Shown here one piece after another: positions 32,443 through 38,385 of a stretch of 62,095 nt of DNA (positions are counted from its first letter, which is position 1; every line of letters starts with the position of its first letter). Both the position numbers and the translations under genes were made by a program. Below the pieces are notes generated by a model. That model searched no databases. It had not been told where the DNA came from and was given only the letters and a program-made list of their open reading frames with translations. The stretch is from an uncultured Clostridia bacterium (GTDB taxonomy: Bacteria > Bacillota > Clostridia > UBA1212 > UBA1255): positions 1 to 62,095 of the forward strand of contig CANQOI010000004.1 of NCBI GenBank assembly GCA_947625435.1. The letters are read 5' to 3'.

Positions 32443-32471
32443 TTGAAAGAAACGGACATGCGTGATATAAT
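32443..32471 (+). promoter_or_regulatory. Sigma-A promoter (extended -10) of the first GNT-repeat protein gene
   Basis: TTGAAA - 17 nt - TATAAT, preceded by TGA (TGn). Confidence 0.6.
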
Positions 32472-32531
32472 CCGTACATATGCAGAGGGGAGAGTGTGTC
32501 TTTCCCGCAAACAGTTAGGAGGTTTTTTACT

Positions 32532-33776
32532 ATGAAAAGAATCGTTTCTGTGATCTTGACATGTGCGCTTGTTATGACATCCGCCGTATTCATTTTCACG
32601 ACAAAGGCTCAGGCTGCGGGCGATCCCGAAAGTTATGTGGAGATCACCGTTGCTGCCGATGACCCGTACATCACAATAGATCTTGACGGAGGAATAGATA
32701 CGTCGAAGGCAAAATATGCCGTTATATGCTATAAAGGCGAAAGCGGTACCGCTGCGGACGGTCAGATATTCCCGAATCCTCCGGTAGGACCGAACGCTGC
32801 CGTTACATATGAAATGAACGGCAAGTGGAATAAGACGGTCGTTGATCTTACCGAGCTCGCCGGTGAGGATTGGTCGAAGGGTCTTCGCTATGACCCGCTG
32901 GCTCACAACGAAGACGGTGAGATAATAGACGTTGCATGGATCGCTCTTACCGCAACGGCTCCCGGAGCTGATTTTGACGAGAATTCATCTTCTGTTTACA
33001 AGCTCATCGACTATAATAAGCTGTTTGAAGCCGCTAACGCTTCTTCGGGCGTAAATGCCATAAAGAATGCGGAGATAAAGGGCGCCAATGCAGCTGTCAA
33101 TACCGACAAGACAGTCAACCTCGCTATTTCAAGGGGCGCAGGAGATCCCAAGAACATGACAGGCGTTGCAGGCGGTCTCGGTATCAAGCTTACTGTTCCG
33201 GAAGGATACAGGCTTAAGGATTTCGTGATCATACAGTCTCCCACATGGGCTACACAGGATCCGGATACATGCAGTGCGATCGTAGAAGTATACAAGTGGG
33301 ACAGCGACTTTGAAACGACAGTCAGCGCTGAAACCGTAGATGATTTTGAGATAGAATCACATGAAGACAATAAGGACCTGGTCCTCACATTCACCGCCGA
33401 GCTCACAGCCGGCACGTATCTCATAAACGTTATATCTTCCGGCGAGAACCCGCTCGGTCTGTGGGACGGCAATCCGGAAGAGAGTCTGGTAGCGGAATAT
33501 GAGGTTGAGACATTCTGGGACGGCCTTGAGGTTGATTGGGTGCCTCAGTCCAAGTTCACACTGGCATCTCTTTCCTCTGAAGGCGGAGATAACCCCGGTT
33601 CCGGCGATACAGGCAACACCGGCAACACAGGAAATACAGGAAATACCGGCAACACGGGAAATACCGGCAACACAGGCAACACCAATACGGCTGACGGCAT
33701 GTCGATAGCTCTTATAATAGCTGCGGCAGCACTCACGGCAACGGTTGTTGTTAAGAAGAGAAGGATCGGTATCTGA
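32532..33776 (+). CDS. Secreted protein with C-terminal (G-N/D-T)9 repeat and NTAD + TM + basic tail
   Basis: Signal peptide MKRIVSVILTCALVMTSAVFIFTTKAQA/AG. The C-terminus is GDT(GNT)8-NTADG-MSIALIIAAAALTATVVV-KKRRIGI. The start ATG 32532 follows an AGGAGG SD. Confidence 0.7.
   Translation: MKRIVSVILTCALVMTSAVFIFTTKAQAAGDPESYVEITVAADDPYITIDLDGGIDTSKAKYAVICYKGESGTAADGQIFPNPPVGPNAAVTYEMNGKWNKTVVDLTELAGEDWSKGLRYDPLAHNEDGEIIDVAWIALTATAPGADFDENSSSVYKLIDYNKLFEAANASSGVNAIKNAEIKGANAAVNTDKTVNLAISRGAGDPKNMTGVAGGLGIKLTVPEGYRLKDFVIIQSPTWATQDPDTCSAIVEVYKWDSDFETTVSAETVDDFEIESHEDNKDLVLTFTAELTAGTYLINVISSGENPLGLWDGNPEESLVAEYEVETFWDGLEVDWVPQSKFTLASLSSEGGDNPGSGDTGNTGNTGNTGNTGNTGNTGNTGNTNTADGMSIALIIAAAALTATVVVKKRRIGI
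33603..33683 (+). repeat. 9 x 9-bp in-frame tandem repeat encoding GDT(GNT)8
   Basis: ggcgataca, ggcaacacc, ggcaacaca, ggaaataca, ggaaatacc and so on. The units differ mainly at synonymous third positions. Confidence 0.9.
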
Positions 33777-36166: not shown

Positions 36167-37519
36167 TCATCTGCGGCTCGCTCTGCGGCGGCGGATCTTG
36201 CCTACGGAAATAAAAACGATAAGAATTATCTCAAACAGTACAAGCACCGATATGATCAAAAATATATCGGTGTTTTCTTGTATTGTCTTGTAAAACACAT
36301 TTACTATCTCATTTTCGGAACGGATAGAATTGCCTGCGACTATCGTGACTGCGTGCACGCTCCCGTCCTTCAGGAGGTAATTGGCCGTACCTATGACACT
36401 GCCCTTTTCAATGGGCGGAGTCAGTTCCGTGAGGACAGAAACAGTGCCTCCGCCGTACGGAGACTGACCGTTATTGCTGACAGTGATATTGTAGCTTATA
36501 TTGTCAATGTAGTTTGTGACATCTGCGGGCATCATGCAGTATATGGATTCATTCGCAACGAGCGTGAGCTCTCCGCTTTCGGTATTGACCGTGGTGATAA
36601 CGCTGTTTTTGGAAACGATAGGAGCTTTGGTAAAATTGGTGAGTGCGTTTTCGATGTATGAAACTCCCAGATCGTATGATATATCATCGGAGACGCCGGA
36701 CATTGCGAGAATGAGCCGAGTCTGAGGAAGCTCCGTATTGGATGCTCCCGTTGTAATGTAATATATCGTGGTAGACAGCCTGCTCTCGCCTCCGTACACG
36801 GTGTAAATGCCTGCCGTGATCGACGAATTGTCAAAGACTGCGTTCCTGAGCATTCTAGACTCATTGACGACTGCCGTTCCTCCCCATATGTGCGCCACCG
36901 GACTTGATGCCGCATTTCTGAACTGCTGGTTGTTTACGGCGTACGAAAAGAATCTGCACATGTCGTTTACGGTGGTTCTCTGAGTGTTGTCCGCCGCTCC
37001 GTCGGGGCTCGTAAAATATGTTGATGACATGCCGAGCTCCCGTGCCTTCTCATTCATGAGCGATACAAAATACTCGCTGTTCGGGCTGACTACGGATGCG
37101 AGCAGCCTTGCGGCATTGTCGGCATTGCACAGTATCACGGATTTTATGAGGTGGTCTACCATGTACTGATTTGAAGTAAGGAGCTCATATCTGCCGGAAG
37201 AAGAGGTGCTGTTTTCCTTCGGGGTTATATAATCCGTGACCGATATCCCTTCATGTTCGAGCACGAGCATGCAAGTCATCAGTCTCGAGAGCTGGGAACA
37301 GTCTGCCGTGGCGTCGGGATTCATACGCTGCAGCACCTGCTGCGTGTCGGCTTCGTATATCATATATGAAAGAGACGTATCCTCCGGTAAAATGCCGGAT
37401 TCCGCGCGGCATTTAGTATATGCCGTGCAGAATATCATGACAGCGCACATAACGCATATAATGCACACAATAAGTAAAACAGCATATATTTTTCTTTTCG
37501 GCAAGAAAACGTCATGCAT
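36167..37519 (-). CDS. Peptidase-S11 (D-Ala-D-Ala carboxypeptidase)-like membrane protein with apparently degenerate active-site motifs
   Basis: The fold-level pattern matches DacB/DacF (..SRLMTCMLVLE.., ..NADNAARLLA.., FVSLMNEKARELGMSSTYFTSPDG). SxxK reads QLSR, SxN reads NAD and KTG reads TAG by eye alignment. There are N-terminal and C-terminal TM segments. Confidence 0.5.
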   Translation of the reverse strand: MHDVFLPKRKIYAVLLIVCIICVMCAVMIFCTAYTKCRAESGILPEDTSLSYMIYEADTQQVLQRMNPDATADCSQLSRLMTCMLVLEHEGISVTDYITPKENSTSSSGRYELLTSNQYMVDHLIKSVILCNADNAARLLASVVSPNSEYFVSLMNEKARELGMSSTYFTSPDGAADNTQRTTVNDMCRFFSYAVNNQQFRNAASSPVAHIWGGTAVVNESRMLRNAVFDNSSITAGIYTVYGGESRLSTTIYYITTGASNTELPQTRLILAMSGVSDDISYDLGVSYIENALTNFTKAPIVSKNSVITTVNTESGELTLVANESIYCMMPADVTNYIDNISYNITVSNNGQSPYGGGTVSVLTELTPPIEKGSVIGTANYLLKDGSVHAVTIVAGNSIRSENEIVNVFYKTIQENTDIFLIISVLVLFEIILIVFISVGKIRRRRASRR

Positions 37520-37630: not shown

Positions 37631-37659
37631 TTGACATGAAGCGGGAGAACAAGTATACT
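37631..37659 (+). promoter_or_regulatory. Sigma-A promoter of the second GNT-repeat protein gene
   Basis: TTGACA - 17 nt - TATACT. Confidence 0.6.
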
Positions 37660-37710
37660 TCGGGCAAGTGGTATTATTACTCACATTATATAACTTTTGG
37701 AGGGTTAATC

Positions 37711-38385
37711 ATGAAGAAGAAAGTAATGGCGCTCATACTTACAGTTGCTCTTGCAGTTTCCGTTATGAGTGTATTTACGGTTCAGGCAGCGGGACTTACC
37801 GTTGAAGTTAAAGACGGCGGCCACATTACCGTAAAGGTTGACGGCGAGACTTCCGCCAATGACTGGGTAGGAATTTATAAAGAAGGCGAGCAGTACGGCG
37901 AAGGTGAAGGAACCGTCACATCGCTCGTATGGTGGTATATAGACGACACCACGAAGACCGTAAACTGGCCCGAAGACAGAGCTGCTGCCAACACTGCCGC
38001 AGGAAAGAACATAGAGGCTGCCGGAAACAGACCTACAGAGCTGAATGAAGATCTGTCTCTTGCTCCCGGCAAGTATTATGCGGTAGTTCTCGGAGGAGAA
38101 GACGCTTATACACCCGTCAGCGGTTTTGATGTTGCCGAATTTGAGATAAAGGCACCCGGTGAGGACAACCCCGATTCCGGCAATACAGGCGACACAGGAA
38201 ATACAGGCAGCACAGGTAATACAGGTAATACCGGAAACACCGGAGATACAGGCAATACCGGAAATACCGGCAGCACAGGCAATCAGGGCGGCAACGCCAA
38301 CACAGCCGACACTGCATCCGTGATATTCATGATAGCTGCGGCTGCCATGATAGTTACAGTTGCTCTGAGAAAGAAAGCTTATTGA
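37711..38385 (+). CDS. Secreted protein with C-terminal (G-N/D/S-T)11 repeat and NTAD + TM + basic tail
   Basis: Signal peptide MKKKVMALILTVALAVSVMSVFTVQA/AG. The C-terminus is GNTGDTGNTGST...GNQGGNA-NTADT-ASVIFMIAAAAMIVTVAL-RKKAY. The start follows a GGAGGG SD. Confidence 0.7.
   Translation: MKKKVMALILTVALAVSVMSVFTVQAAGLTVEVKDGGHITVKVDGETSANDWVGIYKEGEQYGEGEGTVTSLVWWYIDDTTKTVNWPEDRAAANTAAGKNIEAAGNRPTELNEDLSLAPGKYYAVVLGGEDAYTPVSGFDVAEFEIKAPGEDNPDSGNTGDTGNTGSTGNTGNTGNTGDTGNTGNTGSTGNQGGNANTADTASVIFMIAAAAMIVTVALRKKAY
38179..38277 (+). repeat. 11 x 9-bp in-frame tandem repeat encoding G(N/D/S)T units
   Basis: ggcaataca, ggcgacaca, ggaaataca, ggcagcaca, ggtaataca and so on, with synonymous variation between units. 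Confidence 0.9.

Follow-up and report, generated by a model that had tools for sequence, protein, structure and literature searches.

A C-terminal NTAD tail on secreted proteins of an uncultured Clostridia bacterium: probable divergence from the NPxTG-type sortase B signal

The window analysed here is a stretch of 62,095 nucleotides of DNA, contig C4 of the genome of an uncultured Clostridia bacterium (G000; 2.03 Mb in 86 contigs, 48.5% G+C, 98% complete). It carries two genes whose predicted products end in the same kind of C-terminal module. Their features, taken from the list of open reading frames (ORFs), from the translation and from a consensus scan, are as follows.

32443..32471, forward strand: promoter-like site from the consensus scan, TTGAAA, a 17-nt spacer and TATAAT, with TG before the second hexamer
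32532..33776, forward strand: gene for a 414-residue secreted protein with the tail (ORF list; ATG start, stop codon included)
32532..32615, forward strand: predicted Sec signal peptide of 28 residues ending in AQA, read directly off the translation
33603..33683, forward strand: GDT(GNT)8 low-complexity spacer (translation)
33678..33695, forward strand: N-T-N-T-A-D, the proposed sortase B recognition motif, sharing the last GNT of the spacer (translation)
33696..33752, forward strand: 19-residue hydrophobic segment, GMSIALIIAAAALTATVVV (translation)
33753..33773, forward strand: cationic tail, KKRRIGI (translation)
37636..38385, forward strand: second tail-bearing gene, 249 residues from the first ATG (ORF list); its signal peptide suggests a start at 37711
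38293..38382, forward strand: second copy of the tail, NANTAD, TASVIFMIAAAAMIVTVAL and RKKAY (translation)

The promoter-like site at 32443–32471 agrees with the consensus at 11 of 12 positions and is a pattern match only; the longest ORF over the first gene begins with a GTG at 32496. The 414-residue product opens with MKR, a hydrophobic run and AQA-A, which reads as a Sec-type signal peptide. At its other end, translation of 33603–33776 on the forward strand gives GDTGNTGNTGNTGNTGNTGNTGNTGNTNTADGMSIALIIAAAALTATVVVKKRRIGI and a stop, that is, GDT, eight GNT triplets, NTADG, MSIALIIAAAALTATVVV, KKRRIGI and the stop codon, exactly the layout described in the initial annotation. The hydrophobic stretch comprises 19 uncharged residues (a Gly and 18 others), and the GDT(GNT)8 spacer is a probable wall-spanning stalk. 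Within NTNTAD the proposed roles are P4 Asn, P1 Thr, P1′ Ala and P2′ Asp. The motif starts 32 residues from the protein end and is followed by the 19-residue hydrophobic run and KKRR. The protein therefore shows the sequence elements of a generic tripartite sorting signal, namely a signal peptide-like N-terminus, a motif 17–45 residues from the C-terminus, a hydrophobic segment and at least two consecutive K/R, and the genome encodes sortases. The spacing of 17–45 residues is the criterion described for substrates of sortase B (SrtB) in C. difficile (PMC4155245).

By the searches made here, the passenger domain of the 414-residue protein appears to be an orphan. A word-based protein search returned two matches, one of them the neighbouring tail protein, and a related-locus search found no relative among the genome contigs searched. 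NCBIfam and Pfam scans of the whole protein and of its last 60 residues gave no sorting-domain match. Matches to a collagen-like Scl adhesin and to Pfam Collagen (13.9 and 25.1 versus 27.2 bits) were rejected as low-complexity hits arising from the G-X-Y-like spacer. AlphaFold2 modelling of the single sequence had a mean pLDDT of 33.6, which is unusable, and the leads from the ESM Atlas (CBM or galactose-binding-like) scored at most 0.83, under the meaningful level.

The recurrence of the module on an unrelated protein 4 kb away, reported initially, is real: the ORF at 37636/37711–38385 ends in the NANTAD form, and the two passengers share no significant similarity past the signal-peptide region (BLASTP E 6e-4, 53 residues). 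A six-frame scan of the genome for ORFs with a hydrophobic run and K/R residues at the C-terminal end then places [N/G]-T-A-D directly before the helix in six ORFs, on contigs C4 (two), C5, C18, C48 and C72; the proteome scan proposed with the initial annotation has thus taken the tail from two proteins to six. With a hidden Markov model (HMM) built from the six tails, its members reach 61.9–75.9 bits, whereas no other ORF exceeds 14.6. In each of these N-x-x-T-A-D proteins the N-terminus resembles a signal peptide, and a low-complexity spacer leads to the motif, which lies some 30 residues before the C-terminal end and precedes 19 hydrophobic residues and a K/R tail. The spacer itself varies (GNT, GGST, GDQGNT, GDEGNT and GGNTT), so the earlier inclusion of (GNT)n in a fixed module does not hold, and spacers in relatives are P/T/S-, N- or Q/E-rich.

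What is constant lies in the motif. Asn at P4, Thr at P1, Ala at P1′ and Asp at P2′ are invariant in the alignment of the six tails, and P4 was not part of the pattern by which these were picked. Across the genome, 80 ORFs of at least 90 residues close with a hydrophobic run and K/R residues; in 15 of them T[GA]D occurs among the 10 residues that precede the helix, compared with 0.56% of background 10-residue windows (binomial P ~9e-19), and TAD alone in seven (P ~4e-9), values that overstate the case because the paralogues are not independent. DNA identity among the six tails is only 73%, with synonymous third-position differences in the codons for T-A-D and AAAA, so recent gene conversion does not explain the conservation of the protein. 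Judged from these codons, the protein sequence of the tails is under purifying selection rather than recently copied.

The six tails form part of a continuum. A looser pattern finds about 21 ORFs of the genome with a related N-P-x-T-G-[D/E]-type tail, and the motifs are distributed over the contigs as follows.

C8, C16 and C55: NPPTGE (three tails)
C26: NPPTGD
C27: NPATGD and NPSTGD
C35: NTNTGD
C2: PSTGD
C48: PATGD
C6: ATTGD
C29: SDTGD
C16: NPGSGD
C6 and C47: NPQTD (two tails)
C48: NPVTAD, a bridging form
C4 (two), C5, C18, C48 and C72: N[AT][NG]TAD (six tails)
C11, C24 and C54: LPFTG (three tails)
C32: LPQTG (one tail)

The LPQTG protein adjoins a class C sortase.

Curated models recognise part of this continuum. 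The NCBIfam model NF033846 Rumino_NPXTG (‘NPXTG-anchored protein’, 30 positions) scores the C2 tail at 26.0 bits, above its cut-off of 23.5, and five other canonical tails of the genome at 16.6–21.1 bits (21.1, 20.0, 19.6 and 18.9 among them); TIGR03063 srtB_target scores the C26 NPPTGD tail at 18.8 bits against a cut-off of 18.15. NF033846 also matches 9 of 21 subfamily tails at E ≤ 10, the best at 7.3e-6. The 36-residue tail of the 414-residue protein falls below these levels, at 10.2 bits (E 0.72; cut-off 23.5) with NF033846 and 15.5 bits (E 0.021; cut-off 15.9) with TIGR01167 LPXTG_anchor; with the last 60 residues as query NF033846 gives no match, and TIGR03063 gives none to the tail at E ≤ 10. 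Set against an N-P-x-T-G core, the tail reads N-T-N-T-A, with N and T kept and P and G replaced; against L-P-x-T-G it has neither L-P nor G. Profile–profile alignment of the six TAD tails with ten canonical tails (hhalign) nevertheless gives a probability of 88.5% and an E-value of 2.7e-6 over 34 columns, in a register that sets NanTAD opposite nPxTGd. On this comparison the tail is homologous to the NPxTG-D-family signal of class B sortases; the N-P-x-T-G-[D/E] family is that used by uncultured gut and rumen Clostridia.

The same tails are found in relatives. The six-tail model matches 19 of 41 related genomes, including 9/9 of the same genus and 6/6 of a second genus in another family, where the motifs read ETGD, NTNTGD, NADTGD, PTGD, PTAD, NTAD, ATGD, ETSD and ETVD. 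A broader model built from 21 tails (A2) matches 27 of the 41, and more distant genera show NPPTGD, NPQTGD, NQPTGD, NTPTGD, TPPTGD, QPQTGD, NASTGD and KPITGD. As the rows of A2 were chosen by a pattern requiring T[GASV]D, the invariance of T and D in it is partly by construction; P4 is Asn in 13 of its 21 tails. The C72 protein has a homologue in a sister genome (37% identity, E 3e-53) with NTETGD where C72 has NANTAD, and G and A therefore interchange at the position after Thr. The AAAA core of the helix is conserved across the 21 tails in the pattern I/V-A-A-A-A...T-V. A helix so conserved would not be expected if sorting removed and discarded it.

Public data extend the picture. Searched against 1.84 billion cluster representatives, the A2 profile retrieves 91 proteins at E ≤ 1e-3, 89 of which match at the extreme C-terminus; the other two lie inside the protein and are probably spurious. 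TGD is the motif in 44, TAD in 34 and TSD in seven, which puts T-x-D at a constant position ahead of the helix in 85 of the 91; the four C-terminal matches without T-x-D read PSAD (twice), NTGN and GNGD. Among cluster members of ten tail proteins no informative names were found, just ‘hypothetical protein’. A class-wide survey shows the subfamily to be narrow: at E ≤ 1e-5 it occurs in 4 of the 300 genomes surveyed, from 2 of 176 genera. With six proteins in this genome, all nine sister genomes, a second genus and five sortases in the genome, the initial proposal of a dedicated non-LPXTG sortase-type signal, as opposed to a chance tail, stands.

The genome encodes five sortase-domain (PF04203) genes. 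NCBIfam models assign those on C14 and C32 to class C and leave that on C15 unclassified. The only class B sortase is on C28 (C28:29753-30664, 303 residues; TIGR03064 sortase_srtB, 173.9 versus 153.75 bits), and the fifth, on the minus strand of C59 (C59:4070-4804), has class D models as its best NCBIfam matches at 79.9 bits, where the cut-off is 165. The wider inventory suggested by the initial annotation, of sortase, rhombosortase and exosortase genes, came to these five sortases, no exosortase and one generic rhomboid: PF09721 has no match in this 98%-complete genome, and the rhomboid scores 49.2 bits with TIGR03902 against the 84-bit rhombosortase cut-off. All 14 control genomes (14/14) also have a rhomboid, so its presence here says nothing specific.

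The C28 SrtB aligns best with the solved sortase B chains 2oqw and 1rz2 (~138 bits), followed by chains from Listeria, S. aureus and C. difficile. Its catalytic His, Cys and Arg lie in GH, TLSTC and GR segments that match those of the solved sortase B chains and do not vary among 21 orthologues. Reading the alignment by eye in B. anthracis numbering, the enzyme keeps H140, C233 (in TLSTC), R243, Y191, S231, L106, F121 and Y138. Its gene is flanked by one for a leucine-rich repeat (LRR) protein and by a DnaD-like gene, and capsule-type genes lie upstream; no tail gene adjoins it. Such a placement is typical of a housekeeping sortase.

Of 41 related genomes, 39 have a SrtB orthologue, and because SrtB is nearly universal in the order, co-occurrence cannot single it out. 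The other candidates are patchier. The C15 sortase is sporadic and occurs in 0/6 genomes of the second genus. The C59 sortase exceeds 100 bits in only two of 40 relatives (G025 and G034) and has no convincing orthologue in the 15 tail-bearing genomes of the sister and second-genus groups (at most 41 bits in sister genomes, 0/6 in the second genus). Searches with PF04203 and TIGR03064 found no sortase in two tail-bearing genomes, G032 (96% complete, six tails) and G013 (91%, five tails). These absences may be assembly gaps; by a rough estimate, two or three such gaps would be expected among 27 genomes assembled from metagenomes at about 90% completeness, but the absences still weigh against a signal read by SrtB.

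Work on B. anthracis SrtB indicates which residues such an enzyme reads. There, Y191 and S231 are the predicted contacts of the P4 Asn, and mutating them abolished activity, activity needs the P2′ Asp, and L106A, at a Pro-contacting residue, abolished activity; class B motifs are described as typically beginning with Asn (PMC11987632). The C28 SrtB keeps the equivalents of Y191 and S231, and the residues that never vary in the six tails are precisely P4 Asn, P1 Thr and P2′ Asp, which makes the sortase a matching enzyme. P3 Pro is absent from the tail, though the enzyme keeps the Pro pocket, a point against recognition of the tail by SrtB. A complex prediction for SrtB with the tail alignment returned a score of 0.00, which is no answer and counts neither for nor against binding.

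Taken together, the evidence makes it most likely that the tail acts as a sorting signal for a class B sortase, having lost P3 Pro and replaced P1′ Gly by Ala. We put the probability that it is a divergent SrtB-type cell-wall sorting signal, with SrtB-dependent wall anchoring, at about 0.65, on sequence evidence. Under this model, the protein would be exported via Sec by its N-terminal signal peptide and held in the membrane by the C-terminal hydrophobic segment and the KKRR tail. The single class B sortase (C28, 303 residues) would then cut N-T-N-T|A-D between Thr and Ala and transfer the protein to a peptidoglycan amine, leaving the (GNT)8 stalk to span the wall and display the passenger domain.

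An unlikely, if still credible, alternative is that the tail is an uncleaved C-terminal membrane anchor, the degenerate descendant of a sortase signal, with neither Pro nor Gly, that tethers the protein by its conserved helix. Strong conservation of the helix is what a segment keeping a membrane function would show, and the tail of the 414-residue protein stays under every curated sorting-domain cut-off. The two tail-bearing genomes without a sortase found, and the many plain, motif-less C-terminal anchors in the same genome, are in keeping with this, as is a report from C. difficile in which proteins with variant motifs were not processed, two motif-bearing putative SrtB substrates being neither cleaved nor wall-anchored (PMC5569036). 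Anchors without the motif in this genome differ from the tail, however, many having runs of 24–28 uncharged residues and KKKK tails. Moreover, simple tethering would not call for P4 Asn, P1 Thr and P2′ Asp to be invariant in six paralogues despite synonymous divergence, for T-x-D to hold its place before the helix in nearly all public representatives, or for the residue after Thr to be always small (G, A, S or V).

The remaining readings keep a processing signal and change what reads it. It is doubtful, though conceivable from the alignments, that the T-[G/A/S/V]-D tail and its helix of near-invariant small residues make up a distinct sorting domain confined to two genera of uncultured Clostridia, with recognition moved away from the classical pentapeptide to P4 Asn, P2′ Asp and the helix, the last being read by the sortase’s own conserved membrane helix or by an unknown partner. 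If so, about twenty substrates would be served by a naturally occurring class B sortase that is relaxed in its specificity at P3 and P1′. We give little credence to recognition by an enzyme other than a sortase, for example a rhomboid or other intramembrane protease acting on the conserved small-residue helix, which would parallel the rhombosortase/GlyGly-CTERM or exosortase/PEP-CTERM systems. The conserved A-A-A-A helix, the tails in two genomes without a sortase found and the one rhomboid gene would fit such an enzyme, but the search with PF09721 found no exosortase, the rhomboid is generic (49.2 versus 84 bits) and common to all 14 control genomes, and the motif is in register with sortase B signals. 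Hardly any weight falls on the link made initially to the LPNTA signal of class D, sporulation-associated sortases. The tail does contain N-T-A, and the C59 sortase has class D models as its best NCBIfam matches; yet none of the six tails has L-P, the C59 enzyme reaches 79.9 of the 165 bits needed, the gene just upstream of it encodes a different tail, and its distribution is not that of the tail, with orthologues in only two of 40 relatives and no convincing one in 15 tail-bearing genomes.

The divergent SrtB signal is thus the preferred reading, and the TAD tail is not a new sorting mechanism. Its use lies mainly in annotation and in the specificity of class B sortases. In uncultured gut and rumen Clostridia, surface proteins are for the most part identified with LPXTG/NPXTG models and regular expressions; as the tail escapes these, a set of probably wall-anchored proteins goes unannotated, amounting to six here and 34 of TAD type among the 91 public cluster representatives. 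Little is understood of class B sortases, which have some use in protein ligation. If SrtB does accept Ala, Ser or Val after the scissile Thr without P3 Pro, it would be a naturally relaxed class B sortase.

Several known systems provide a comparison. Queries for NPXTA, NPQTA, NPKTA, NPPTA, NPPTG and NANTAD found no sortase-related literature among the matches listed, by title and abstract opening, and the matches listed for NPXTG held no literature on Ruminococcus-type tails. Class D LPNTA signals of Bacillus have Ala after the scissile Thr, as here. They differ in that the present tail has no L-P, no class D sortase lies above the cut-off and there is no phylogenetic match. A class A enzyme is described as cleaving LPNTA less well than LPXTG (PMC4155245).

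A second comparison is C. difficile SrtB, a class B enzyme that serves as the general anchoring enzyme of a Clostridium-type organism. It cuts (S/P)PxT|G, and its native peptides continue with D (PVPPKTGDS, SDSPKTGDN), as given in PMC4155245. Unlike the NTAD tail, the C. difficile motif keeps Pro and Gly, and about eight substrates are predicted there as against some 21 candidate tails here; the SrtB of this genome is also closer to the Bacillus and Listeria chains (138 bits) than to those of C. difficile (~95 bits).

The best-matching solved sortase is B. anthracis SrtB, which acts on the IsdC signal DNPKTGDE. The P4 Asn and P2′ Asp that are needed there are invariant here. This genome differs in its many candidate substrates, and the six tails have Ala at P1′ and no Pro at P3. 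R116 of B. anthracis SrtB, linked to the P3′ Glu, is a Tyr in the C28 enzyme in the alignment read by eye.

The nearest described family is NF033846 Rumino_NPXTG, which has the same layout and, by profile comparison, belongs to the same homology family. The tail of the 414-residue protein departs from it in having Thr at P3 (Thr or Ala in the six-tail family), Ala at P1′ and a far more conserved helix (IAAAA..TV). Seen beside these systems, the tail is most likely a lineage-specific variant of the known sortase B signal rather than a new sorting system.

The passenger domains of the tail proteins are not all unrelated, since in the 414-aa protein (window 32532-33773) the final subdomain of the passenger (residues ~251-340, VYKWDSDFETT...AGTYLINV) is similar to a stretch of the tail protein on contig C18 of the same genome (G000). 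BLASTP between the two returned an E value of 3e-7, over an aligned span that takes in the tail as well.

G000 C18:19314-20375, C18 tail protein, with the similar stretch VYNWDNDFDTS...AGNYVVVL
Window 33603-33683, spacer of the first window tail protein
Window 38170-38290, spacer of the second window tail protein
Window 36167-37519, minus strand, 450-aa ORF between the two tail genes

In four of the six tail proteins, the spacer consists of 9-13 unbroken G-X-Y triplets (GNT, GDT, GST, GDE, GDQ), which accounts for the near-threshold matches to Pfam Collagen (25.1 vs 27.2 bits) and Scl. The remaining two carry spacer repeats of period 4 or period 5, and a collagen-like helix is therefore not general to tail proteins. 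The ORF between the two window tail genes has a membrane segment at its start, and a hydrophobic run with a KIRRRRASRR tail at its end; by eye, our guess from the sequence is a D-alanyl-D-alanine carboxypeptidase-like product.

Two anchor types lie close together in several relatives (loci L016, L018, L020, L051 and L052), where the tail-bearing gene shares a ~3-kb locus with a gene for a P/T/A-rich protein whose helix is longer (19-24 residues), whose tail is of the KKKK(K) kind and which lacks the T-x-D motif. KKKK-tailed proteins of this kind are also numerous in G000. Elsewhere in that genome, two 419-aa ORFs sharing one C-terminal anchor sequence are spaced 6 kb apart on one contig, an arrangement that looks like recent duplication or a repeat in the assembly.

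G000 C46:6946-8205, 419-aa ORF
G000 C46:13034-14293, 419-aa ORF
G000 C59:4070-4804, minus strand, class D-like sortase gene, within locus L034 (C59:4070-5490)

The class D-like sortase gene overlaps the 3' end of its upstream gene by a few bases. This neighbour encodes a 229-aa secreted protein ending in ...AAAEVDTR-VIFVAAAAVLVVGVVALVVA-KKRASVR, a C-terminus in which the T-G/A-D motif is absent. The two may form a dedicated sortase-substrate pair using yet another motif.

In the alignment of sortase B orthologues, the column following G-R-L-V-V, four residues past the catalytic Arg, holds Asn or Ser (VVNAV/VVSAV) in each of the ten sequences from the genus of the window, and His (VVHAV) in the other eleven and in the B. 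anthracis chain. It is in this genus, too, that most tails have lost the P3 Pro, the proline of the canonical NPxTGD signal, and the two features may be linked.

Two large G000 proteins end in N-P-Q-T-D followed by a helix and a K/R tail, in the contexts DNPQTDN and NNPQTDD.

G000 C6:50600-55969, minus strand, large protein gene
G000 C47:1-1101, plus strand, large protein gene

Staphylococcus aureus has a signal of the NPQTN type, which these tails resemble, but with Asp after the Thr.
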